A DNA stretch of 56,681 nt from an uncultured Micavibrio sp. (GTDB lineage: Bacteria; Pseudomonadota; Alphaproteobacteria; Micavibrionales; UBA1664). Below, piece after piece: positions 140 to 29,917 of the stretch. Position numbers and translations under genes: made by a program. The notes beneath the pieces were generated by a model. That model had not been told where the DNA came from and did not search any database. It was given only the letters and a program-made list of their open reading frames with translations. The DNA is taken from positions 1-56,681 of the forward strand of contig CAYGLI010000004.1 in assembly GCA_964350795.1 (NCBI GenBank), given 5' to 3'. The first letter of the stretch is position 1. The number at the start of each line of letters is the position of its first letter.

Positions 140-1195
140 ATGAAAAAACTATCTATAGCTGCACTTGCGTGCGCGACACTTTTATCAACACAAACAATGG
201 CTCAGCACCTTAACGTCCCTGCATGCACCGACTGTCATGTCAATTTATCACCAAAGGGCATCATGAGCGACCACCTGCATAAACCAGGCGAATATATGCT
301 CTCTTACACATTCATGCGCATGGATATGGGTGGTAACCGTAATGGAACGGATAGCCTGTCCCCTGAAGAAGTTATCACATTCGCCAACCCCAATGCCGGC
401 CCCGCCAATTTGCGTGTTGTGCCAACCGACATGACAATGGATATGCATATGCTTGGCGGTATGGTCGGTATTACAGATTGGCTAACGGGTATGGTGATGG
501 TGAATTATTTGGATAATTCTATGGATCACATTACATTCAACATGGCGGGAACAGCACGCGTTGGTGAATTCACAACCGAGAGCTCAGGATTTGGTGATAC
601 CGAAGTTGGCGGTATATTCTCACTCTATAAAAACGGTGCCCATGGATTAAACGGTCAATTATCCCTTTCATTACCAACAGGTTCAATTAATGAAACCGAT
701 GATGTTTTAACACCGATGGGCACACGCCCAACATTACGTTTGCCATATATGATGCAATTGGGAACGGGAACATATGATGTGCGCCCTGCCCTGACATACA
801 CTTACCTGACCAATGATTGGACATTTGGCGGGTCATATAATGCGCGATTGCATATGGGGCGTAATAACGAAGGATACACGCGTGGTGATTGGCATGAGGT
901 CACCACATGGGCAGGATATCAATTTGATGACACTTTGGGCGTGTCATCATCATTGTCATTTCGAACCGAGGATAAAATTGATGGTGCAGACACGCAAATC
1001 ACAGCGCCCGTTCAAACCGCCGATCCCGATAATTATGGCGGTGAAACAATTCACCTTGGTTTGAATGCAGGATGGAAATTTTATGATCAACATACCGTTA
1101 AGGCGGGTGTATCCATTCCCCTCTACCAAGATTTGAATGGACCACAAATGGAAGATGATTACGCGTTCAGCCTAAGATGGCAGAATTCGTTCTAA
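140..1195 (+). CDS. Outer-membrane beta-barrel protein, COG4313/MetA-pathway-like transporter family (putative)
   Basis: 351-aa ORF with Sec signal peptide MKKLSIAALACATLLSTQTMA. LPTG and GTGTYD motifs and an amphipathic strand pattern are present. The C-terminus ...RWQNSF ends in Phe, as in OM barrels. An AAGGA run lies about 10 nt upstream of the ATG. Confidence 0.55.
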   Translation: MKKLSIAALACATLLSTQTMAQHLNVPACTDCHVNLSPKGIMSDHLHKPGEYMLSYTFMRMDMGGNRNGTDSLSPEEVITFANPNAGPANLRVVPTDMTMDMHMLGGMVGITDWLTGMVMVNYLDNSMDHITFNMAGTARVGEFTTESSGFGDTEVGGIFSLYKNGAHGLNGQLSLSLPTGSINETDDVLTPMGTRPTLRLPYMMQLGTGTYDVRPALTYTYLTNDWTFGGSYNARLHMGRNNEGYTRGDWHEVTTWAGYQFDDTLGVSSSLSFRTEDKIDGADTQITAPVQTADPDNYGGETIHLGLNAGWKFYDQHTVKAGVSIPLYQDLNGPQMEDDYAFSLRWQNSF

Positions 1196-1794
1196 TCTCC
1201 CAATTCACTATCCCAATATAGAAAATCCCCCCAGCTTTCGTGAAGGAAGTTCGGGGGGAATTTTTTACCATTGCGTTGTAATTCATAGATGGTGGGTTGT
1301 CTTGGCGATTTTTTTGGATGCATTCCGCAATCTTTTGGTAATTTGTTCCCCTTCACACTGTTGCAATGGCGACACGCCGTGACGATATTGTCCCAACTTG
1401 TTCCTCCACCTTTGGATCGGGGGATAACATGGTCGAATGTTAATTGATGGGTTTTATATTCATGGGTGCAATATTGGCATTCCCATTCGTCGCGTAAGAA
1501 AACATTAAACCTTGTGAAAGCAGGATGTTCAGATTGAGGAATAAATTCTTTTAATGCCAAGACTGATGGCAATTTAATATCAATCGAGGGTGAGCTGACA
1601 ATGCGTTCATATTCACTCACGACAACGGCGCTGTCGCGAAACACGGCCTTAATGGCGTCTTGCCATGACCAAATAGACAGCGGAAAATAGGATAGAGGCC
1701 GATAGTCGGCGTTGAGAATAAGCGCAGGATAGTTTTGCAGGGAGTCCGTATCATGATTAAGAAATCTGTCATATGATTCGGGCTCTATATACAT
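1192..1794 (-). CDS. HNH endonuclease family protein
   Basis: 200-aa ORF with the HNH/zinc-ribbon core CQYC...FDHVIPRSKGGGTSWDNIVTACRHCNSVKGNK. Its stop overlaps the convergent barrel gene by 4 nt. Confidence 0.8.
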   Translation of the reverse strand: MYIEPESYDRFLNHDTDSLQNYPALILNADYRPLSYFPLSIWSWQDAIKAVFRDSAVVVSEYERIVSSPSIDIKLPSVLALKEFIPQSEHPAFTRFNVFLRDEWECQYCTHEYKTHQLTFDHVIPRSKGGGTSWDNIVTACRHCNSVKGNKLPKDCGMHPKKSPRQPTIYELQRNGKKFPPNFLHESWGDFLYWDSELGD

Positions 1795-1940: not shown

Positions 1941-2046
1941 TGTCATTCCCTGAATTTGCAAAGCAAATTATAAGGGAAACTGTGCCTCTGCCGTCCAACC
2001 AACAGAATGGATTACCCGAACAAGTCGGGTAATGACAAAATTCAGG
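1941..2046. repeat. Palindromic MITE-like element, long variant with TGTCATT/AATGACA termini
   Basis: Termini tgtcattccc...gggtaatgaca match the ends of the 74-bp family. Internal hairpins are ttccctgaatttgc/gcaaatt..agggaa and attacccga/tcgggtaat. The outer pair is cctgaattt (1949-1957) with aaattcagg (2038-2046). Confidence 0.5.
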
Positions 2047-2228
2047 TGAAATCCCTACCCAACAACGATAGTTAATACCGCGAAAATACAGCCGTAAAAT
2101 GTGAAAAACTCCACCGCTTCACGTGGTGTTTTTGTGTTTTTAAAATCAAATAAATGCTTAAACATGACTCAAACCCTCTCTCTGTAAGGGTTTGATAGCA
2201 GGTTAAGGACATATAATGCAAGTTTTAT

Positions 2229-2525
2229 TTATGCAATTTTCTGGATACGAGGTTGTTTACGTCTGACAACGTGCGTTTCTTGTGGAATAACTACCCCAGA
2301 AGGCACTGATGTCGGATCGCCGACCCCAACCTGAACGACCGCCAAATCATCTATTCCAGATTGCACCGCAAGACTCATTATTTTAGATAGCTTTTCATCA
2401 GTGGGATAGTTTGTTAGTACAGTATGTGGATGAATTTGATGCTCTGATGTTCCTTTTATATCGGATAATGCAGCCTCTTTCAAATCGCCTTTTGCATCAA
2501 TCTGTAATATTTTCAATTTTGTCAT
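2229..2525 (-). CDS. Hypothetical protein (98 aa)
   Basis: This is the only long ORF in the interval. I recognise no motif, and no clear signal peptide is present. Confidence 0.35.
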   Translation of the reverse strand: MTKLKILQIDAKGDLKEAALSDIKGTSEHQIHPHTVLTNYPTDEKLSKIMSLAVQSGIDDLAVVQVGVGDPTSVPSGVVIPQETHVVRRKQPRIQKIA

Positions 2526-2586
2526 TTTCTTTTCTTTCTTAATTTTAAAATTATCACCCTGTTTTTCGAAAATTCTGTTTTTAAAT

Positions 2587-2612
2587 AAACAAAAACCCCG
2601 AAAATCGGGGCT
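2587..2612 (-). terminator. Rho-independent terminator downstream of the LysE-family gene
   Basis: Hairpin ccccga-aaa-tcgggg (2596-2610). On the minus strand it is followed by TTTTTGTTTATTT. Confidence 0.6.
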
Positions 2613-2788
2613 TGTTATTGTTTCGTTATGGTTTTTCTAAATCACATATACTTAACAACAGCCCCTTGCGGTAAACTGCCAAAAATAGAAAAAGTTAAAA
2701 TATGTGTTTTGTTGAACCATGAGACAAGCATAACAATATCAGTTTATAAAAAGCAACATAAAAATTATGGGAATCGTAAGTTTTTTTT

Positions 2789-3415
2789 CTAATTCAACTT
2801 CTCGGACGCGATTTTTAAACCTAAACCGATAAACATTACACCCGTCACGCGGTCAATCCATATGGATATGGCGGATAATTTTGCGCGGATTTTGGCTTGG
2901 GTTAATGTGAGACTCACGATTGAAAACCATCCCATCACCATGATTGCGATGGATGTGCCATAGATTAATTGCCATGATAATGGGGTGTCTGGGCGAATAA
3001 CCTGTGTGAACAATGCCAAGAAAAACAATGTTGCCTTTGGGTTTAAAACATTCGTGATGAACCCTTCAACGAATGACTGAGTCAATGACTTGGTTTTATT
3101 TTTCGCCTTTTCAACGTTCATTTCCCATCCTTTGGATCGCAAGGCCATAACGCCCATATAAATTAAATAGGCCGCGCCGATATATTTTATGATGTTAAAA
3201 ATAATGATGGATTGAGAGATAATCAACGCAATCCCCAAAACGGAATAGGCCACATGCACAAATATCGCGCACCCAATCCCAATTGCCGTGGCAATCCCCG
3301 ATGCGCGCCCTACCCCCAACGCATTACGCATCGTCACCAAAAAATCCGGCCCCGGCGACGCCATGGCGATAAAGGTAACGGAGACGATGATGATGTATGT
3401 TGAGATGAAGTCCAT
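2789..3415 (-). CDS. LysE/RhtB family amino-acid efflux translocator
   Basis: 208 aa, about 6 TM segments, and an N-terminal ASPGPDFLVT motif typical of LysE/RhtB. Confidence 0.85.
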   Translation of the reverse strand: MDFISTYIIIVSVTFIAMASPGPDFLVTMRNALGVGRASGIATAIGIGCAIFVHVAYSVLGIALIISQSIIIFNIIKYIGAAYLIYMGVMALRSKGWEMNVEKAKNKTKSLTQSFVEGFITNVLNPKATLFFLALFTQVIRPDTPLSWQLIYGTSIAIMVMGWFSIVSLTLTQAKIRAKLSAISIWIDRVTGVMFIGLGLKIASEKLN

Positions 3416-3500
3416 GGGTTAACTTTCAGATTTTACAATTAAATATTGACGTATTTAAATTAATTGTTTAACTAATTAAAAAACAATAAAAAACTATCAC

Positions 3501-4856
3501 ATGTATAAGAAAATAAAAAAACAAAACGGTGAACGCTTTGCTCAGGCCGTACGAAATCACCACAATGGAATTTTTGAAATTCCAGATATTGATGTGATAT
3601 TAAAGTACGCTGGCCGAGAAACCACACCATTATTGCTCAACTATTTGGTGAGTAAAATGCCCATTAATGAACAAAAAACACTACCGAAAAAACGACAAAA
3701 TCCTTTTAAGTTATTAAAAAAAGCTGGTTATAAAGCCTTTTTGGCAGATACATTAGAAAAACAAAATAGCATAAAATCATATTTTAGGCGGGACGAGTTA
3801 TTATGCACGTTTAACAACAAAGCTCGGTTTCAACGTAATTACGTCATACATGCCATAAGACATGATGCAAGCGATCTTGTCCGTAGGGATTTTAATGGTG
3901 TTGAAAGCCGTCAGGACGCCTATGGCACATCAGTTATATCAATTCAAATGTTTAAAGACGGTGGATTCATTAGTATAAAAAATCGCTATAATCATACTGT
4001 TCCAGGATGCGATCATACATTTGATAGCAATCCAGATAATATTATTGACGGCCTATCCGATGCTCTTAAAACATATTTTAATGTTGATTTTCATGCGACA
4101 GCTTCGCCGCTTGGTTATGGCTTTGTATTAATGGGGGACAATATTTTTAAATATAATTTTGAAATAAATAATATTTATTATGGCGATCAGGCATGGGCCG
4201 AAAATGGCCAGGTGCATGCCGTCAATAAGAGTGCAGGCGATGCATTATTTGAAGGATTTTTATTTTCTAATAAAACAAAAAAATTAATCAAAATTGATAC
4301 ACAATCAAAAGATAGTTTTGCGGATGATTTTAACGCGTGCTATGGCGGAAACTCTTTATTAAATGTACGTAAAGGTAGCCTTTTTTTAGGTGATCACTGT
4401 TTAATTAATGCAGAATGCTCAGAAATTAAAGAACTTGATTTACCCGATTTGGAAATAATGGGTAACAACAGTCTTTATCGTGTCCCTGCCCTTGTCACCT
4501 TTAATGCGCCTAATCTTAAATCAATGGGCAAACAATGCTTGCAAAACACACCTTCTCTGAAATATTTTAGGTGTGAATCTCTCGAAAAAATGAAGAATAA
4601 ATGCCTTCAAAACACACGTATTCTTGATATTTTCTGTACGCCAAATTTAAAATACATGAGTTTTGGCTGCCTTGAAAACACATCCTCCATCTCTCAATTT
4701 TATGCCCCAACGCTTGTTAAAATGGGTGGAAAATGTCTCTTGAAAGTAAAAGAAATCAAACAATTAAACACATCATCATTGGCAACATACCCCCGATATC
4801 TAGAAAAAATAATTCCTAGAAATTCAAGAAAAACATCAATCCTTAGGCCACAGTAG
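3501..4856 (+). CDS. Hypothetical protein with C-terminal BspA-type leucine-rich repeats
   Basis: 451-aa ORF. Residues ~296-428 (nt ~4386-4784) form 5-6 repeats of ~23 aa (L..L..MG..CLQNT..L..F..P.). I do not recognise the N-terminal ~290 aa. The gene is visibly more A+T-rich than its neighbours and has no clear SD. Confidence 0.6.
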   Translation: MYKKIKKQNGERFAQAVRNHHNGIFEIPDIDVILKYAGRETTPLLLNYLVSKMPINEQKTLPKKRQNPFKLLKKAGYKAFLADTLEKQNSIKSYFRRDELLCTFNNKARFQRNYVIHAIRHDASDLVRRDFNGVESRQDAYGTSVISIQMFKDGGFISIKNRYNHTVPGCDHTFDSNPDNIIDGLSDALKTYFNVDFHATASPLGYGFVLMGDNIFKYNFEINNIYYGDQAWAENGQVHAVNKSAGDALFEGFLFSNKTKKLIKIDTQSKDSFADDFNACYGGNSLLNVRKGSLFLGDHCLINAECSEIKELDLPDLEIMGNNSLYRVPALVTFNAPNLKSMGKQCLQNTPSLKYFRCESLEKMKNKCLQNTRILDIFCTPNLKYMSFGCLENTSSISQFYAPTLVKMGGKCLLKVKEIKQLNTSSLATYPRYLEKIIPRNSRKTSILRPQ

Positions 4857-20612: not shown

Positions 20613-21152
20613 ATGGCCCGTCCACGCAAAAGATCAGATGACGTTATAATCGTCAAAAAATATGCCAATCGTCGTTTATATGACACAGGCAAGAGCAGCT
20701 ATGTCACACTTGAGGACTTGGCTGAAATGGTACGTGAAGGATTGGATTTCAAAGTCATTGATGCAAAAACAGAAAAGGATTTGACCCAATCTGTATTAAC
20801 ACAAATCATTGTTGAACAAGAAGGAAAAGAAGGCGGTGCAAATTTGTTGCCTCAAAATTTCCTTAAAGAAATTATCAAGTTTTATGGTGGAAATATGGAG
20901 GCATTTGTACCAACCTATTTAGAACAAGCCATGCAAAATTTTGTTCAATCTCAAGAACAAATGCAGGAACAAATGAAACAATCATTCGGTTCCATGATGC
21001 CCACAGGCGCAATGAACACCATGTCATCACCAGAACAAATTCAAGAAATGGCGCAAAAAAATATGGAGATCATGCAAAAAACAATGGATTTGTTCACGGC
21101 TTTTGGAAGTGGCTTTTATTCGGATATATATGATTATATTTTTAACTTCTAA
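20613..21152 (+). CDS. phaR: Polyhydroxyalkanoate synthesis repressor PhaR
   Basis: The N-terminus IIVKKYANRRLYDTGKSSYVTLEDLAEMVREG is the PhaR signature. AGGAGAA RBS. Confidence 0.9.
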   Translation: MARPRKRSDDVIIVKKYANRRLYDTGKSSYVTLEDLAEMVREGLDFKVIDAKTEKDLTQSVLTQIIVEQEGKEGGANLLPQNFLKEIIKFYGGNMEAFVPTYLEQAMQNFVQSQEQMQEQMKQSFGSMMPTGAMNTMSSPEQIQEMAQKNMEIMQKTMDLFTAFGSGFYSDIYDYIFNF

Positions 21153-23797
21153 AATTTTTGTTCGATTGAGCCTATCAACCGATCGCGCATATCGATGGCT
21201 AACTTGAAAGTATCCATGTCCGCCTCGTGTGCGAGGGCATAAAACATTCCGTCTTCGGCAAAGAATAAAATTGACGCCGCGCTTCCGTTGGCATTCTCAT
21301 CAACACAGGCAATATCGGCGGATTTTACAACCAATCCATTTATCGTATCAACGGTGTTTAAATTTTGGTCAAAACTTCCCTGACAACGGCTAGCCGTTTT
21401 TTGGATATAGTTTTGAACAGAGTTGTTAAAGGCGGAAACATCACTCAATCGGCTTTGCTCTCCACTTCCATACACCATACCCGTATCCCATTTAAATGCT
21501 GCGAAATCTGGGCCTGAAACACTATCGACACGGTCAATTGACGCCATTAATGGAATTTTTGATTTCATCACCAATTGCCTAATTTCATCGCCCGATAAGG
21601 CCATCATTCTTGAGGCAGGCATGGAATTAACTTGTTCTGGTATAATCGGCATAGATTTTGTCGCCATAAGATTGATTGCGCTCGTATCATCCTGATTATT
21701 TGTTCCACCAATTTTATTGCGTAATTGTGATGTTTGAACAGTTCGATCAAGTGGCTTTGAGATCCGCCCTGCTTGGTCAACATCACTCACAATAATTTTG
21801 TTTTCTGGCATGGCATCGGCCTCAGCGATTGGCTCTTGCGACCTTTCTTGCTGGCGTTTCGCCATCATATCTGATCGTAATAAATTATTTTGCGCTTCTA
21901 ATGCGGCCAATTCAGACCTTAGCGTTTTAGCCTCCAACTCTTCTTGAATAGCCTCAGGCGTATCATTGGCCAATTTCGCGATTTTGGCCTCTGCCAATTG
22001 GCGTTGCACAAGCATCGTTTCGGCATCAATCACCGCCATGCGTTTTTGTAGTTTTTGTTTTTCAGCTTGTGTTTCCTGAAGCTTTTTCTGTGTTTCCGAA
22101 AGTTGCAAAGACAATCGATTAAGACCGTCTGAACCTGCATCTATATTTGCAACATCAATATCACCCGAGGTTTTAGCGAATTCCAATTGACGCATTAGCT
22201 CTGCTTTTTCTTTTTCCAAACGGCGGACATCTGCAACTAAATTTCCTTCGTTGCTCGAAACACTTTGAATTTCATCGGTCACATTACCCATTTCACGAAT
22301 ACGACGACGCTCCGTTTGCAATAAGCGACGATATTCATCGCGCTCCGCCTTATATGATTGACCCTCGGCTTCCACTTCCGCCAATTGCATTGCCATTTCC
22401 GAATCCGCCATTGTGGTGTTACCTGTCATAACAGGCACCTCCTTGATGACCTCCTTAATGACGGGAACTTCAACTTCTCTGACAACCTCTTTAATAATAA
22501 CTTCTGGCTCTGCCTTGTTTGACGCCATGGATTGAATACGGTTATTTTCAGATTTCAAACCACTGATTTCTTGCTCTAATGTTGAAATCATGGATTGCAT
22601 TTTTTGATTTTGCGCCAATATTTCAGGTGAATTAACCGGCACTTCCTTAACAATCTCAACTTCCCTGATGATTGTTTCAGGTGTCGTCTTTTGACCGACC
22701 TCGATTTGCAAGCTGTCACGTTGCGCCATTAAGGTTGTTAATTCTGCCTGCAAATTAGACAATGATCGTTTTAATTCTGCATTTTCACGCGCGATCTCTG
22801 GTGAAAACACTGGCACCTCAACCTCTTTAATAACTTCCACTTCTTTTATAACCTCAACAGGAACGCTTGGCACCTCAACGGTTCTAACAACCTCGATCTC
22901 TCTTGTAATAACTTGTGGTTCTTGGTTTTGTGCGATTAATAAATTTTGTTTTAAATCATTATTTTGCGCTATCAATTCCGCAATCTGTGCGTTTTTCTCA
23001 CGAATTGCGGCATCCATATTGGGGTTAATGGATTGCTTGCTTTGTTCAACAGATTTTTCCAGTTCCGCAATACGCAACTGAGCCGAAGATAATTTTGCCT
23101 GTAACTCTAAATTCTTATTATCAATAATGGTCGAGACAGGCTGGCGAACCTGTTTATTTCGTTCGGTTAACAATTGTGTTAAACGTCTGTTTTCCGATAG
23201 CAATTCATCGATTTGATTATTTTGTTCCGCCATCACCTTCGGCTGTTGGGGTGGGATGATCGTTTTTGTTGGCACGGCAACTGTTTGTGACTGCACTGGA
23301 ACGCTCTTTGGTTGAGCCATAACTGTTGGCGTCACACCCAAACATTCGCGAACGCTTGCAAAACCACCTTGTGTTCCACTTAAATCAACATCAAACATTT
23401 CATTATCAATTTTAACACTCATAATCGACGCCGAGGCCAACGCATCAAATAATAATTTATCTTGTCCAACCCGCATGATGACAATATTGTTGGCCGCGGG
23501 CTTGACCGAATATTCACGAATAACGCCACTCACGTTGATTTGAATTGGATATCCGCGTGTTATATCAAAGCTGTTTCTTGAAAAATCAAGCGCAAGCGTT
23601 CCCTCATCGTTTGCATTTTTCGCAATGGTTAGGGAGATATTATTTTCGTATTGGCGTTTAAGCGTACAATATGGGTTGTCACCCCCAACCTTATTCGTTG
23701 CCCAACCGCTGACACCCACTAACGTTCGCGCATCAACAATTGATGACGACACCATCAACACCGCAAAAGAAGATAAACCAAGAATATTTAATTTCAT
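21149..23797 (-). CDS. Secreted 882-aa coiled-coil protein with E/V-rich repeat modules (function unknown)
   Basis: Signal peptide MKLNILGLSSFAVLMVSSSIVDA. The N-domain (W32...C44...EC152LG) is paralogous to that of the upstream 499-aa protein. It has ~550 aa of heptad-like coiled coil, three EV.V.KEVPV modules, and a Cys-containing C-terminal globular domain. Confidence 0.6.
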   Translation of the reverse strand: MKLNILGLSSFAVLMVSSSIVDARTLVGVSGWATNKVGGDNPYCTLKRQYENNISLTIAKNANDEGTLALDFSRNSFDITRGYPIQINVSGVIREYSVKPAANNIVIMRVGQDKLLFDALASASIMSVKIDNEMFDVDLSGTQGGFASVRECLGVTPTVMAQPKSVPVQSQTVAVPTKTIIPPQQPKVMAEQNNQIDELLSENRRLTQLLTERNKQVRQPVSTIIDNKNLELQAKLSSAQLRIAELEKSVEQSKQSINPNMDAAIREKNAQIAELIAQNNDLKQNLLIAQNQEPQVITREIEVVRTVEVPSVPVEVIKEVEVIKEVEVPVFSPEIARENAELKRSLSNLQAELTTLMAQRDSLQIEVGQKTTPETIIREVEIVKEVPVNSPEILAQNQKMQSMISTLEQEISGLKSENNRIQSMASNKAEPEVIIKEVVREVEVPVIKEVIKEVPVMTGNTTMADSEMAMQLAEVEAEGQSYKAERDEYRRLLQTERRRIREMGNVTDEIQSVSSNEGNLVADVRRLEKEKAELMRQLEFAKTSGDIDVANIDAGSDGLNRLSLQLSETQKKLQETQAEKQKLQKRMAVIDAETMLVQRQLAEAKIAKLANDTPEAIQEELEAKTLRSELAALEAQNNLLRSDMMAKRQQERSQEPIAEADAMPENKIIVSDVDQAGRISKPLDRTVQTSQLRNKIGGTNNQDDTSAINLMATKSMPIIPEQVNSMPASRMMALSGDEIRQLVMKSKIPLMASIDRVDSVSGPDFAAFKWDTGMVYGSGEQSRLSDVSAFNNSVQNYIQKTASRCQGSFDQNLNTVDTINGLVVKSADIACVDENANGSAASILFFAEDGMFYALAHEADMDTFKLAIDMRDRLIGSIEQKF

Positions 23798-23888
23798 TAT
23801 ATAGACTGCCTTTTGAACATAAGAATCATATTGTCATGTTAAAGGTCTTTTGCGCTTGGGGCAAAACTTTTTTTCTTGAGGTCGCGCT

Positions 23889-25388
23889 CTATGATTGCCC
23901 CATCGTGACAATCAATGTTTTCTTACCTGTGTCGGGGTCAACATTCAATGTTGCGACGGGTCTAATATCTTGGCCTTTGAATTGCTCAATTAATGCGGCA
24001 ACTGCTCCATTATAATCTGTCATTGTTTTGATCGATTGTTTAATCAAAAATTGTTGGTCTGCATTCCATACGAAATCAATATTTTCTTTCGCACTCCATC
24101 TTTGTAAAACCTTACGCAAATTTGTTCCCTGCAATGCGCGCCACTTAATTTCATTGACTGGCTCTTTTGGCATGGCTGCCGTTTTATTATCCTCATTCGT
24201 GACCAAGGTCGAAGCCTCAGCAATTTTCACAACATCTCCGTCTTCGGTCGAAATCATGGCGGATGGCATATTTTGGGGAATCGTTTCTTTTAACAAACGA
24301 TTGACCGCAATATCCAATGGCCCATATATGGTGAAATTTTTAGTAATTTGAGGGTCATTCACCAACTCAATATTTGGTTTAACCCCTGCTTGTCTTGCCC
24401 ATGTGGAAAGAACAGATGATAATTTGTCACCTTTTTGCGCGACCCATGTTGTCATTTGCAATTGGATATTATCTTTTTTCTCTGTCTCAGTGATTGTTTT
24501 GGTTTCATCGCTCAATGAAATACGGATATTATTTTCTGCAATTAAAAGCTCATAACCAATCGGGTCTAGGGCATCCTGCAATGTTTCAAACCAAACGGCA
24601 TTCGATTCCCATGAAATTGGTTTCATCGCGTCAATTTGCCTATCTAATTTAAAGGTATAATCCGATGGCACAATCATCGGCAACGCCATGACTAGCGGAA
24701 TATTTTCACCTGATTCACGTGTGTTTGATAAATCAATATCACCCTCATAATCGTTCAAATCTTGTGCCATGACCAAATCAACTGGCTCGGCGGGCATCTC
24801 TGGTGTGTCTGCATCCTTTGATTTCAGGATGTGATCTTCAACATTGGCGGTAAGCATAACAAATGGTTCATTCACAACCTTGAGCGTTTGCAAACCATCC
24901 GCGCCCTGACATTCCAATAATTTTGCGTATGCATCCACAAAAACACTCGATGAAAAATAATAATCCTCGGTGCCAATGCGTAATCGATATATCCCCAAAT
25001 CAATAATTTTTTGTGCTACAGCAGGAACAGTGAGCAAACTGGCGTCAATTTGCCCATCAACAGAGCGTGATTGTAAGCCATAGGAATTTTGATCCAGCCC
25101 CAAACCTAAAAACCCTTTCACACGTCCACCCTGAAGATCGCGAACGCGTAAGGCCGATAATTTACCTTGTTTTCCCTTAAATGTAATTTCAAGGCCATTG
25201 GTATAATTGGCGCGCATGATGCATTCACCTGTTGGTGTGCCGTTATCCCGAGTAAATTCTTCAATCACCCATGGTGATTGGATTTGCGCAACGGATGTTT
25301 GCGGCTGAACAACATCAACCGCCATGGCGGTTTGGCCATAAATGACCAAAACAATATAGGCACTGACAACACCAAGTAAAATTCGCAT
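23889..25388 (-). CDS. Secreted 499-aa protein with duplicated TcpQ/STN-like C-terminal modules (function unknown)
   Basis: Signal peptide ...VIYGQTAMA and N-domain W40...C56...EC160QG. Two ~55-aa modules, W.A..G..L..VL..W[AS]....[VI]...AV..L, fall at residues ~314-368 and ~415-470 (nt 24285-24449 and 23979-24146). Confidence 0.6.
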   Translation of the reverse strand: MRILLGVVSAYIVLVIYGQTAMAVDVVQPQTSVAQIQSPWVIEEFTRDNGTPTGECIMRANYTNGLEITFKGKQGKLSALRVRDLQGGRVKGFLGLGLDQNSYGLQSRSVDGQIDASLLTVPAVAQKIIDLGIYRLRIGTEDYYFSSSVFVDAYAKLLECQGADGLQTLKVVNEPFVMLTANVEDHILKSKDADTPEMPAEPVDLVMAQDLNDYEGDIDLSNTRESGENIPLVMALPMIVPSDYTFKLDRQIDAMKPISWESNAVWFETLQDALDPIGYELLIAENNIRISLSDETKTITETEKKDNIQLQMTTWVAQKGDKLSSVLSTWARQAGVKPNIELVNDPQITKNFTIYGPLDIAVNRLLKETIPQNMPSAMISTEDGDVVKIAEASTLVTNEDNKTAAMPKEPVNEIKWRALQGTNLRKVLQRWSAKENIDFVWNADQQFLIKQSIKTMTDYNGAVAALIEQFKGQDIRPVATLNVDPDTGKKTLIVTMGQS

Positions 25389-25424: not shown

Positions 25425-26538
25425 TTATTCTTCTGTTTCTCCACCTAGTCTGTGGGCAAGTGCACCCTCTAAAAACATATCAATGTCTCCATTTAAAACC
25501 TTATCCGATTGATTGGTTTCAATATTTGTCCGTAAATCCTTGATCATCTGATAGGGCGCAAGCACGTATGACCGAATTTGATGCCCCCACCCGATATCGG
25601 TTTTTTCACCATGCGCCTCGGACTTTGCGTCTTCGCGTTTTTGAATTTCCAACTCGTATAATTTTGCCTTGAGCATCCCCATCGCAAAATCTTTGTTTTG
25701 ATGCTGTGATCGTTGGTTTTGACACGCAACAACAACGCCCGTTGGAATGTGTGTAATACGCACCGCGGAATCCGTTGTGTTCACATGCTGTCCCCCTGCT
25801 CCGCTAGATCGATAAGTATCAATTTTCAGGTCTTTTTCTTCGATCAAAATATCAATTGTATCGTCAATCACAGGCGACACACCCACGGAAGCAAACGACG
25901 TATGACGACGTCCCGCCGAATCAAATGGCGATATCCGCACAAGGCGATGCACACCGTTCTCACCCTTGAGCCAGCCATAGGCATTATGCCCTTTTATTTG
26001 AATGGTCGCTGATTTAATACCGGCCTCTTCGCCATCACTTTGATCCAACAATTCAATTTTGTATCCTTTTGAATCCGCCCACCGCGTATACATGCGTAGC
26101 AACATATTTGCCCAATCACACGCCTCTGTTCCTCCTGCCCCTGAATTCACCTCTAGAAACGCATCGTTTCTGTCCGCCTCACCCGACAGCAAACTCTCAA
26201 GTTCCATCCGTGCGGATTTTTCTTTTAATTGGGATAATTCAGATTCGGCATCCGCGACGATAGACTCATCACCCTCTTCCTCGCCCATTTCAATCAGGCC
26301 GACATTGTCATTGAGGGTATTTTCAATCTCAAGCACGCTATCGATATTATTTTGTAATGTCGTGCGTTCCTGCATTAATTTTTGCGCCTTGGCGGCATCA
26401 TTCCACAAATCAGGATCTTCGGTCAGCGCGTTCAGCTCGCTCAATCGTTCAACGGCGTTAGGCCAGTCAAAGATGCCTCCTTAGCAATTTCAAAGATTGC
26501 TGAATTGATTGAACAACTGATTCCGTTTCTGCTTTCAT
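25425..26538 (-). CDS. prfB: Peptide chain release factor 2, requiring a programmed +1 frameshift
   Basis: Frame 0 reads MKAETESVVQSIQQSLKLLRRHL then TGA (26538-26467). A +1 shift at CTT TGA C continues as DWPNAVERLSELNALTEDPDLW... into the 25425-26444 track ORF, which carries the GGQ motif (SGAGGQHVN) and SPF. The total is ~370 aa. Confidence 0.93.
26466..26481 (-). promoter_or_regulatory. RF2 autoregulatory frameshift site
   Basis: The minus strand reads AGG AGG CAT CTT TGA C. An internal SD-like AGGAGG lies 3 nt before the slippery CTT, followed by an in-frame UGA and then C, the same layout as the E. coli prfB site. Confidence 0.9.
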
Positions 26539-26668: not shown

Positions 26669-27583
26669 ATGACTTTTATAAAATCATTATGTGTAGCAAC
26701 CGCGGTTATTGGATTATCCGCTTGTTCATCATTTAGTAGCAATCAAGAAGTTGAAAAATTAGGGATGGTCACGGCCGTTGGCTCACCATTCACATTACAA
26801 TTAACAAGCGAATATCGTGCCTTTTCCGATTTTGAATTGGATAATGAAAAAGATTATGCGGATGCTCTGCATTTCTCTCGCAAGGGTTTGGAAGCCGCCA
26901 AGGGTGTGAATGTCATGCCAGAGCCAGTCCATGATTGGGATATTACAGAGGCGGATGTGATTGAATTATCCGAGGCATACGCCCGCTTGGTTTCTGCATT
27001 TGATCGCGGAGCCCGTGAAGTGTTACCTGGAAAATCAGCCATCGCACAGGCGCGTTACGATTGCTGGATTGAAGAGCAAGAAGAAGTTGCAAATGGTATG
27101 CCATCAACGGTTTCATGTAAAAATGATTTTATGACCGCAATAGCCGAGGTTGAAGCCGCATTACCAGCCGAAATTATGCCAGCACCAATGGCCGCAGAGG
27201 AATTCCCTGCACCAGTGACAATGTTAGGCAATAACGAGCCATTAAATATTGCCGAGGCGATGTACCTTGTGTTCTTTGACTTTGACTCATCTGTTTTAAA
27301 CCCAGAGGGTGTCAGCGTTGTTGAATCCGTTGCAAATGAATTTAAAAATGGTCAAATCAGCGGTATTAATATTATTGGACACACTGATACATCTGGATCT
27401 GCGGCCTATAACGAAAAACTGGCCAGTCGTCGCGCCATGTCCATCAAGGGTGAATTGGTTTCACGTGGTATAGCGGCCGATGTTATTACAACGGGTGGTG
27501 CCGGTGAAAATGACCTTCTTGTTGATACACAAGACGGTATTCGCGAGCCAGCCAACCGTCGTGGTGTGATTACATTTAACTAA
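26669..27583 (+). CDS. OmpA-family lipoprotein
   Basis: Lipobox VIGLSAC. The C-terminal OmpA domain reads FFDFDSS...IIGHTDTSGSAAYNEKLASRRA...NRRGVITF. AAGGAG RBS. Confidence 0.85.
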   Translation: MTFIKSLCVATAVIGLSACSSFSSNQEVEKLGMVTAVGSPFTLQLTSEYRAFSDFELDNEKDYADALHFSRKGLEAAKGVNVMPEPVHDWDITEADVIELSEAYARLVSAFDRGAREVLPGKSAIAQARYDCWIEEQEEVANGMPSTVSCKNDFMTAIAEVEAALPAEIMPAPMAAEEFPAPVTMLGNNEPLNIAEAMYLVFFDFDSSVLNPEGVSVVESVANEFKNGQISGINIIGHTDTSGSAAYNEKLASRRAMSIKGELVSRGIAADVITTGGAGENDLLVDTQDGIREPANRRGVITFN

Positions 27584-27668: not shown

Positions 27669-29111
27669 ATGGATTTGAGACCTGTTCTATATATTATTGG
27701 TATCTTCTTGTGCATGCTCACGGGGTTCATGACAATTCCATTATTTCTCGATCTTTATTTCCTAAACCCCGAATGGCGTGGATTTGCCCTCTCAATTGGG
27801 TTAAGTGGTTTTTGTGGAGTATTACTTATCCTTGGAAATAAACAAAAAAAAATTGAAATATCAGGTCAACAAGCCTTCTTGCTTACGGGTCTGTCATGGA
27901 TATCGTTATGCCTGTTTTCTGCCTTTCCATTTATTTTTATATTCCCTGAAATGGGGTTCACAAATGCGATGTTTGAGGCTGTATCTGGATTAACTACAAC
28001 CGGCGCAACTGTTTTGACGGGTTTGGATGATATGCCACACGGTATTTTAATATGGCGTTCCCTGTTGCAATGGTTAGGCGGTGTTGGAATTATCGTGATG
28101 GCCATATCCGTTCTACCATTCCTAAAAGTCGGTGGAATGCAATTATTCCGTTTGGAATCATCGGAAAAGGAAAAAACATTACCTCGTGCCACGCAATTGG
28201 CTGCCTATATCATTTATATCTATCTGGGGTTAAGTGTTGCCTGTGCCTTGGCCTATAACGCCGTTGGAATGGATGCGTTTGATTCCATCGCCCACGCGAT
28301 GACAACCATTGCCACGGGTGGATATTCAACCAAGGATGCATCTTTTTCAAATTACGCAACAATTGGGCCTGAGCTAATCGCGATTATTTTCATGATTTTG
28401 GGATGTTTGCCATTTGTGCTTTATATTAAAATGATTGGTGGCGATTGGAAGGCGGTTCCCCGTGATGAACAGGCCATGGGATTTCTAAAAACCGCTCTCC
28501 TCCTCTGTCTTATTATGGTTGGATATCTGACTTACACATTAGACAGCATTTCCGTTAACATTGTTATCGAGGCCGTGTTCACAACAACATCACTTTTGAC
28601 TGGCACAGGATATACCGACACAAATTACATGACATGGGGTGCGTTTGCCGTTGGTTTTTTAATGTTTATCAGCTGTATTGGTGGATGTGCCGGATCCACA
28701 ACATGTGGCATAAAAATATTCCGCTTTCAAATCATGTATGCGGTTGCGCGTAATCAACTTTATCAATTAATCCATCCCAATGGTGTTTTTACGATTGATT
28801 ATAATCGGCAACCATTATCCGTTCAGGTTGCCGCGTCCGTCATGGCCTATTTCTTTATCTTTTGCGTTAGCTTTGTTGTGGTGAGCGTTGCCCTTATGGC
28901 ATGTGGGCTTGACGTTATAACATCCCTATCTGGGGCGGTTGCATCGCTTGCCAATGTTGGCCCTGGGTTGGGTAATATCATTGGACCAACGGGAACATAT
29001 CAAACCTTACCAAACAACGCCAAATGGATTTTGATATCATCCATGATGTTGGGACGTTTAGAGTTTTTTACATTGCTGGTCTTTTTTGTTCCACGATTTT
29101 GGCGACGTTAA
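27669..29111 (+). CDS. trkH: Trk-type potassium uptake protein TrkH
   Basis: 480 aa, polytopic, with repeated selectivity-filter-like motifs (TTTGAT, ATGGYST, LTGTGYT, NVGPGLG). Confidence 0.9.
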   Translation: MDLRPVLYIIGIFLCMLTGFMTIPLFLDLYFLNPEWRGFALSIGLSGFCGVLLILGNKQKKIEISGQQAFLLTGLSWISLCLFSAFPFIFIFPEMGFTNAMFEAVSGLTTTGATVLTGLDDMPHGILIWRSLLQWLGGVGIIVMAISVLPFLKVGGMQLFRLESSEKEKTLPRATQLAAYIIYIYLGLSVACALAYNAVGMDAFDSIAHAMTTIATGGYSTKDASFSNYATIGPELIAIIFMILGCLPFVLYIKMIGGDWKAVPRDEQAMGFLKTALLLCLIMVGYLTYTLDSISVNIVIEAVFTTTSLLTGTGYTDTNYMTWGAFAVGFLMFISCIGGCAGSTTCGIKIFRFQIMYAVARNQLYQLIHPNGVFTIDYNRQPLSVQVAASVMAYFFIFCVSFVVVSVALMACGLDVITSLSGAVASLANVGPGLGNIIGPTGTYQTLPNNAKWILISSMMLGRLEFFTLLVFFVPRFWRR

Positions 29112-29917
29112 TTTTTTAATGGCGTAATTTGAACCGGTTGAACTGATTTTGCTTTTTCGGTTGGCTCTGCTTGATAAGGCTCATTGGTATCTATATTTTC
29201 AAATGTTTCCTGAACTGATGTTCTCATCTCACGAACACCATCACCAACACCCTCGGCAAAATCACCCATTTTTGTTTGCGTTTTAGGAACAAAAGTTTTG
29301 ACGTCGATTGTATGAACAGGAATATTTCGTTTTGAAATTAAATTCATTTGATCTGAAAGCGTTAATATCATTGATTCATCAATATCACGCACCATTTCCT
29401 CTAATGTTCTTTGCAATCTTGCTTCGCGATAGGCCATTGTAACATTTAATGGCATCCGTATTTTACGCACAAATCTTGTTGTTGTTTGGCGATCTGGCAT
29501 ACCCGATAGATAGAGACTTTCAATATCAACGATTATTTCAATCGTATAATCCTCGTTATTCGCCAATGGAATATATGACAGCAATTTATTTTCATTTGGT
29601 GCGTCGGCCTTGGTAATTTGAGCCTTAGTCAACACCACATCTAATAAGCCGTCTGCCGCGGCTGGTTTAAAACGTTGCTCCAAATAACGACGCATGGCAA
29701 CGTCAGGTGGTGTTGGAAGCGTGCTTGCAATATCCCACGCCTGTGCTCCGCGTTGTGTTTTTGATGAAAACTCAATTCTTTTAACGTTAACTGGAATCTT
29801 TGTCAGATGTTCATAGGTTAATTGAGGCAATGGCGTTGCCTGTTGCACAGGTGATGCTGTACAGGCAGATAGAGTTAAAAGTGAAAGAGATGTTAGAGTG
29901 AGATATTTAAATTTCAT
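29108..29917 (-). CDS. Hypothetical lipoprotein
   Basis: 269 aa with lipobox LLTLSAC. It overlaps hslO by 4 nt (same operon) and overlaps the trkH stop convergently. Confidence 0.5.
   Translation of the reverse strand: MKFKYLTLTSLSLLTLSACTASPVQQATPLPQLTYEHLTKIPVNVKRIEFSSKTQRGAQAWDIASTLPTPPDVAMRRYLEQRFKPAAADGLLDVVLTKAQITKADAPNENKLLSYIPLANNEDYTIEIIVDIESLYLSGMPDRQTTTRFVRKIRMPLNVTMAYREARLQRTLEEMVRDIDESMILTLSDQMNLISKRNIPVHTIDVKTFVPKTQTKMGDFAEGVGDGVREMRTSVQETFENIDTNEPYQAEPTEKAKSVQPVQITPLKN

Follow-up and report, generated by a model that had tools for sequence, protein, structure and literature searches.

The stretch of DNA analysed here, 56,681 nucleotides of contig CAYGLI010000004.1 from an uncultured Micavibrio sp. 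(referred to below in its whole length as the 56.7-kb window), carries two consecutive minus-strand genes directly behind the gene for release factor 2, prfB. The encoded proteins, P499 and P882, are equipped for export, and comparison of their family profiles indicates that they share a homologous N-terminal domain, or head. In P499 this head is followed by two modules related to the secretin partners TcpQ and BfpG, and in P882 by a long coiled coil and a separate C-terminal domain. The pair is an undescribed architecture made from known folds. Based on sequence comparison and structure models, we propose that P499 and P882 form a constitutive periplasmic structural or adaptor module, that is, a scaffold of the cell envelope, and we put the probability of this interpretation at roughly 45%. 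The genes concerned are the following:

25425..26537, minus strand: prfB (release factor 2), directly upstream of P499 on the same strand; identified from the list of open reading frames (ORFs) and from the Pfam PCRF and RF-1 domains of its syntenic copies.
23889..25388, minus strand: P499, exported protein of 499 amino acids (aa); in order, signal peptide, IalB-like head, unassigned module and two TcpQ/N0-like modules.
23798..23888, minus strand: spacer of 91 nt between P499 and P882, in which the terminator scan detected no terminator-like hairpin.
21149..23797, minus strand: P882, exported protein of 882 aa; in order, signal peptide, IalB-like head, segmented coiled coil, linker and PsbP/DcrB-like tail.

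The common head of the two proteins occupies these positions:

24894..25283, minus strand: P499 IalB-like N-domain, residues ~36-165, with W40, C56 and C160 (hhalign to the P882 N-domain and cross-family hidden Markov model (HMM) matches; fold inferred from the model of the P882 head).
23324..23728, minus strand: P882 IalB-like beta-sandwich, residues 24-158, with W32, C44 and C152 (AlphaFold2 model and Foldseek).

When the P499 and P882 family profiles were aligned with hhalign, two independent builds gave P = 8e-7 (92 %) and P = 7e-6 (85 %) over ~105 aligned columns, which cover the whole domain. Moreover, an HMM made from P499 heads only finds the heads of coiled-coil proteins in distant loci (7e-7 in L010 and 3e-8 in L013), and an HMM made from P882 heads only finds TcpQ-type proteins in others (7e-6 in L008 and 1e-10 in L014). 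Over 29 diverse heads, the invariant columns are one W and two C only. The pairwise BLASTP comparison of P499 with P882 is not significant (E = 6), as would be expected if the likeness were due to chance and the genes were unrelated neighbours. We consider this explanation refuted by the hhalign P value of ~1e-6 over the full domain, the reciprocal single-family HMM matches that reach 1e-10, the invariant W/C/C columns, and the adjacency of the two genes in eight of ten distinct loci. On the strength of these profile comparisons, we conclude that the N-domains of P499 and P882 are homologous.

Modelled with AlphaFold from a 25-sequence alignment, the P882 head is predicted to be a beta-sandwich with two helices (pLDDT 94.8, pTM 0.87). 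In a Foldseek search of the PDB, the first six places were taken by chains of 3DTD, the structure of Bartonella henselae IalB (invasion-associated protein B; E = 3e-4 to 1e-3, probability 1.0, TM-score (TM) 0.60-0.65). At the sequence level, neither P499 nor P882 matches the IalB family of Pfam (PF06776) at E <= 1, and none of 50 distant family members does so either. The head profiles, including that of the broad N-domain set, do not reach the 3DTD sequence at E <= 10, and PDB sequence searches with the N-domain, C-domain and broad N-domain profiles returned noise only. Because matches to PF06776 and to the 3DTD sequence are absent, we assign the modelled head an IalB-like fold but not membership of the IalB family. 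Like the members of this family (PF06776/COG5342; 3DTD; RgsG), the head is of alphaproteobacterial origin, is exported by the Sec route and forms a beta-sandwich of ~130 aa, with 3DTD as its best structural match. However, P499 and P882 carry the domain at the head of multidomain chains, whereas the small proteins IalB and RgsG consist of this one domain. Some distant P882-type proteins have two IalB-like heads per chain (P0057, aa 29-170 and 612-751; P0085, aa 26-165 and 443-584).

The next Foldseek matches of the P882 head are much weaker than 3DTD and comprise the N-domain of MotY (2ZF8; E = 0.02, TM 0.50) and one chain from the flagellar LPHT ring of Vibrio (8Z5N; TM 0.64 on the query). 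They bring up the reading that P499 and P882 constitute a periplasmic scaffold of a flagellar motor, similar to the MotY/MotX T ring, the FlgT H ring or the PflA/PflB disks, and it agrees with this reading that N0-like modules are ring builders and that an OmpA-type lipoprotein is a conserved neighbour. Nevertheless, we deem a motor scaffold quite improbable. The head resembles these structures weakly and in its fold alone, flagellar genes are absent from the window and from the related loci, and the coiled coil varies greatly in length, which is unusual for a fixed motor part. In addition, unlike MotY and the flagellar T ring, P499 and P882 have neither an OmpA domain (Pfam) nor flagellar neighbours.

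Downstream of its head, P499 comprises three further modules:

24507..24713, minus strand: P499 middle module 'PLVMALPMIVPSDYTF...', residues ~226-294 (found in 7 of 18 close homologues and also in distant ones).
24261..24467, minus strand: P499 TcpQ/N0-like module 1, residues ~308-376 (second PF10671 stretch; hhalign to module 2; match of the family profile to BfpG of 9U5S).
23904..24155, minus strand: P499 TcpQ/N0-like module 2, residues ~412-495 (best PF10671 stretch, residues 416-478).

P499 matches the Pfam family TcpQ (PF10671) in two stretches, with an E-value of 1.2e-18 and 67.4 bits against a cut-off of 27, and its distant orthologues score 56-85 bits on the same family. Modules 1 and 2 are homologous to each other (hhalign, 5e-11). 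Moreover, the P499 family profile matches a 114-aa chain that is present in 17 copies in PDB entry 9U5S (E = 3.7e-5), the BfpB-BfpG secretin complex of enteropathogenic Escherichia coli. BfpG is a TcpQ homologue with an N0-like fold that assembles with the secretin into a ring complex of 17:17 stoichiometry, and from this homology an N0-like fold is expected for the TcpQ modules of P499 (PMC12531336). A phmmer search of the PDB with the P499 modules alone found nothing. The middle module has no Pfam match and shows no significant similarity to the TcpQ modules by hhalign or Pfam.

These matches also speak for an alternative in which P499 assists, in the manner of TcpQ and BfpG, a type IVb, Tad or type II secretin whose gene lies elsewhere in the genome, and P882 is a periplasmic alignment or anchoring factor of the same machine. 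TcpQ and BfpG are N0-like partners of secretins; P499 modules 1 and 2 lie above the PF10671 threshold (67 bits), the family profile matches BfpG in the BfpB-BfpG complex, and P499 is exported to the periplasm. Still, we regard a secretin accessory as unlikely. Pfam scans of the ORFs revealed no pilin, secretin, secretion ATPase or flagellar genes in the window, nor are there platform genes, and no pilus, secretin, ATPase or platform genes occur within ±7-10 kb of ten related loci. Known TcpQ/BfpG proteins are small and single-domain and are encoded beside the secretin in type IVb pilus operons, whereas P499 is a multidomain protein of 499 aa that has, besides its two tandem TcpQ modules, the IalB-like head and the unassigned middle module, and its gene follows prfB, with no pilus genes nearby. 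Finally, P882-type proteins persist where the TcpQ-type gene is absent.

The features of P882 beyond its head are the following:

21848..23230, minus strand: P882 segmented coiled coil, residues ~190-650 (~460 aa; hydrophobic periodicity and generic coiled-coil family matches).
22840-22910, 22630-22680 and 22420-22510, minus strand: P882 V/E/P-rich spacers (sequence reading).
21152..21595, minus strand: P882 C-terminal domain, residues ~735-882, with C805 and C831 (AlphaFold2 model and Foldseek; conserved in distant members).

Several segments of P882 between residues 190 and 650 have a hydrophobic periodicity of 3.5 residues, with z up to 6.5. Its library matches in this region are weak ones of coiled-coil type (SMC, TIGR04211), and distant members also match generic coiled-coil families only. 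The coiled coil is cut at residues ~295-332, ~372-390 and ~430-458 by V/E/P-rich stretches ('EVIKEVEVPV', or EV(I/V)KEVEVPV type), which may act as extended or hinge spacers; similar EV(I/V)KEVEVPV repeats are found in several homologues (P0024, P0026). The AlphaFold2 model of the tail (pLDDT 93.5) was matched by Foldseek to PsbP, DcrB, LpqN, Mtc28 and EagT6 with TM 0.5-0.56, E = 2e-4 to 1e-3 and probability 1.0, at 9-14 % identity. Neither a PDB sequence match nor a sequence-family match was obtained for the tail. According to its model, this domain has a PsbP/Mog1/DcrB-like alpha-beta fold, a resemblance at fold level only. Several domains of the PsbP/Mog1/DcrB/LpqN type are periplasmic or envelope protein-binding modules; the P882 tail differs from them in that it is joined to a long coiled coil and has its own invariant Cys pair. 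Among P882-type relatives, the spacer between head and tail measures from 260 to 1275 aa, a five-fold range.

Both proteins begin with a Sec signal peptide, read from the sequence and kept in all homologues, with cleavage between MRILLGVVSAYIVLVIYGQTAMA and VD in P499 and between MKLNILGLSSFAVLMVSSSIVDA and RT in P882:

25320..25388, minus strand: P499 Sec signal peptide, residues 1-23, cleavage after AMA (sequence reading; conserved in the P499-family alignment).

No lipobox is present in P499 or P882. P499 contains exactly two cysteines (C56 and C160) and P882 exactly four (C44, C152, C805 and C831), and all of them are conserved. Since the cysteines are conserved and paired by domain, the Cys pairs of the two heads and of the P882 tail plausibly correspond to periplasmic disulfides, as predicted from the sequence.

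The initial annotation of this DNA had anticipated much of this architecture. It had placed the two genes at 23889-25388 and 21149-23797 on the minus strand, 36 nt behind prfB and with no terminator in between, and had given both proteins signal peptides; the ORFs, the terminator scan and the conservation of the signal peptides in all homologues agree with it. The N-domain that it took to be shared was recovered by profile-profile alignment and by the cross-family HMM matches, and its residue numbers (W40/C56/C160 and W32/C44/C152) and motifs are correct. The same applies to the comparison of the P499 repeats with TcpQ/secretin-N0-type modules, confirmed by PF10671 and by BfpG of 9U5S. In P882, a coiled coil and a separate Cys-containing C-domain were rightly distinguished, but the coiled coil is segmented and spans ~460 aa (roughly residues 190-650) instead of ~550 aa. 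The statement that neither protein can be assigned to a characterised family is valid for the full-length proteins and too strict for their domains: Foldseek on the AlphaFold models, which had been suggested as a check, led from the P882 head to 3DTD, hence an IalB-like fold, and from its tail to a PsbP/DcrB-like fold.

A gap of 36 nt separates the end of prfB (25425) from the ATG of P499, and no intrinsic terminator (hairpin plus T-run) was detected by the terminator scan in this spacer or in that between P499 and P882. The pair is probably transcribed with the housekeeping gene prfB or just after it. The ORF list gives only the downstream frame of prfB, with an artificial TTG start, because of the canonical programmed +1 frameshift site AGGAGG-CAT-CTT-TGA-C of this gene at 26466-26481 on the minus strand (the AGGAGGCATCTTTGAC site); the prfB ATG lies at 26537. 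At the other end of the pair, the P882 stop (minus strand) and the 3' end of the convergent gene phaR (plus strand) overlap by 4 nt (21149-21152), and there is no space for a terminator between the two.

Word-indexed searches recovered only 18 P499-type and 11 P882-type relatives, all of them metagenomic, and only seven fragments when the broad C-domain alignment was used. Among GTDB species genomes, three were matched, all metagenome-assembled genomes named 'Alphaproteobacteria bacterium'. An exhaustive HMM search with the head profile returned 420 clusters (50 % identity) at E <= 1e-3, and the matches listed are mostly proteins of 700-1700 aa. The same head and the same tail were found together in 37 of 50 sampled matches; the others are short and look truncated. 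Pfam and NCBIfam gave coiled-coil noise only on 50 distant members, with no model for head or tail, and neither full-length P499 nor full-length P882 matches a characterised family. The annotation names of 30 cluster representatives are either 'hypothetical protein' or clearly wrong, for example 'chromosome segregation ATPase', 'LysM repeat protein' or 'Zn-ribbon protein'. A tblastn search of plasmids with a distant C-domain found nothing. One 497-aa fragment, P0029, has a precomputed match to Pfam PF27954.1.

Co-conservation was judged in ten distinct loci with a GC content of 38-60 % (the window, L001, L002, L005, L006, L008, L010, L012, L013 and L014). In all eight loci where the upstream gene is visible, the P882-type gene follows closely after prfB, and a conserved housekeeping block surrounds it (OmpA(-)/prfB/.../phaR-phaCAB/cNMP/AsmA). 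A P499-type gene sits between prfB and the P882-type gene in 8/10 loci. It is absent at locus L012, and in L013 it is replaced by two tandem P882-type paralogues after prfB:

L013, 7001-10912 and 10928-12358: tandem P882-type paralogues of 1303 aa and 476 aa, both with head, coiled coil and tail.

Strict co-occurrence of the pair, which the initial annotation had proposed as a check, thus fails in two of the ten loci. Because the P499-type gene is absent from L012 and L013, only prfB and the P882-type gene make up the conserved core; a TcpQ-type gene accompanies them at the locus often but not always. Four distant loci, unlike the window, carry a GGDEF-EAL gene a short way behind the P882-type gene:

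L008 11966-13684 and L012 11383-12765: GGDEF-EAL gene directly after the P882-type gene.
L010 14076-15863 and L013 12582-14291: GGDEF-EAL gene one gene further on.

This neighbour is reminiscent of RgsP, the GGDEF-EAL protein of the Rgs system of Sinorhizobium meliloti, and may be a coincidence.

The conservation of the locus also bears on whether P499 and P882 are surface-exposed or secreted factors of host interaction or invasion. The IalB-like fold of the head fits such a role, as does a protein with leucine-rich repeats (LRRs) of the BspA type at 3501-4856 of the window. However, the export signal is of the Sec type only, with no signature of an autotransporter, a type I secretion system or another route across the outer membrane. 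Moreover, the genes belong to a core housekeeping synteny that extends over GC-diverse lineages from environmental metagenomes, and in free-living bacteria, proteins with an IalB domain, for example RgsG, take part in the growth of the envelope. We therefore hold a role in host interaction to be highly improbable. In the phrase of the initial annotation, a candidate 'envelope or host-interface module', the envelope part is retained and nothing supports the host-interface part, given the conserved housekeeping synteny at GC contents of 38-60 %. Its remark that pilus, secretin and secretion ATPase genes are missing nearby holds for the window and for the ten related loci. Of the alternatives concerning function, we give most weight to the secretin accessory, less to the flagellar scaffold and least to the host-interaction factor; contextual support is absent for each.

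If P499 and P882 do form an envelope scaffold, both proteins would stay in the periplasm, where the shared head would dock them onto a common envelope partner or onto each other. P882 would di- or oligomerise through its coiled coil and produce a long strut or filament parallel to the membranes. The five-fold variation in its length argues against a fixed, periplasm-spanning ruler and is more easily reconciled with a strut or filament that runs along the envelope. The N0-like modules of P499 would bind, or form a ring around, an outer-membrane or peptidoglycan-associated complex. The role of such a module would be to organise the envelope or keep it stable, for instance at the poles, the septa or the sidewall, and not to build a pilus. 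By analogy, RgsG, an essential periplasmic IalB-domain protein located at the growth pole and septum of S. meliloti, may be seen as a precedent for IalB-domain proteins in envelope biogenesis, in support of a scaffold (PMC7327166).

On the other hand, several points weigh against a scaffold. The heads match neither PF06776 nor the 3DTD sequence, and the P499-type partner is missing in two distant loci, L012 and L013, the latter with tandem P882-type paralogues in its place. To our knowledge, the biochemical function of IalB itself is not known, and we know of TcpQ-type domains otherwise as secretin partners only. In addition, a secretin may be encoded elsewhere in the genome, outside the window and the related loci, and the conserved housekeeping synteny may reflect inheritance and not a functional link.

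A periplasmic coiled-coil polymer is known from Vibrio cholerae, where CrvA and CrvB, Sec-exported coiled-coil proteins, are encoded by adjacent and partly paralogous genes. P499 and P882 are likewise adjacent, partly paralogous and Sec-exported, and P882 combines a Sec signal with a long coiled coil. However, no sequence relationship to CrvA/CrvB was detected, P499 lacks a coiled coil, and any polymerisation of P882 or role in cell shape would be hypothetical. A far-reaching extension of the scaffold proposal, which we consider a long shot, is that P882-type proteins make up a previously unrecognised periplasmic filament, or 'periskeleton', widespread in Alphaproteobacteria. It would be anchored or nucleated by the IalB-like head, with P499 as an N0-ring adaptor, and would control cell shape, polarity or envelope mechanics. 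Two other leads from the literature were dropped: CpaM of Caulobacter, a polysaccharide deacetylase, is unrelated, and the IalB-TAA linkage is incidental in the judgement of its own authors.

The genes of the window are otherwise of the housekeeping kind and include gyrA, uvrA, AsmA, the polyhydroxybutyrate (PHB) genes, an OmpA lipoprotein, TrkH and Hsp33, as well as pyruvate dehydrogenase E1, CFA synthase, PGK, RuvABC, YebC and CarD; an Alph_Pro_TM protein is also encoded and confirms that the DNA is alphaproteobacterial. Two lipoprotein genes lie on the far side of prfB:

26669..27583, plus strand: OmpA-family lipoprotein, lipobox LSAC, divergent from prfB (Pfam OmpA; synteny).
29108-29917, minus strand: lipoprotein of 269 aa, lipobox LSAC, with no Pfam match; adjoins Hsp33.

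The OmpA-family gene neighbours prfB in all related loci, which we report as context only, and an unannotated gene of similar size to that of the 269-aa lipoprotein adjoins Hsp33 in L001, L008 and L013. The BspA-type LRR protein (3501-4856, plus strand) and an HNH endonuclease (1192-1794, minus strand) lie in a stretch of lower GC, with 37 % at 2001-4000 of the window, and this stretch may be a small acquired island.

The envelopes of Alphaproteobacteria depart from the E. coli model, and for several of their essential periplasmic factors, RgsG among them, no mechanism is known. In this sense, the prfB-linked family described here, with its IalB-like head, variable coiled coil and PsbP-like tail, is a testable candidate for a periplasmic scaffold with a frequent TcpQ/N0 partner that carries the same head. 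TcpQ/N0 modules occur here outside any pilus locus. Moreover, the orphan IalB fold gains a new context, which may help to explain its binding target. If the periskeleton proposal were true, the IalB-like fold would serve generally for docking in the alphaproteobacterial envelope.

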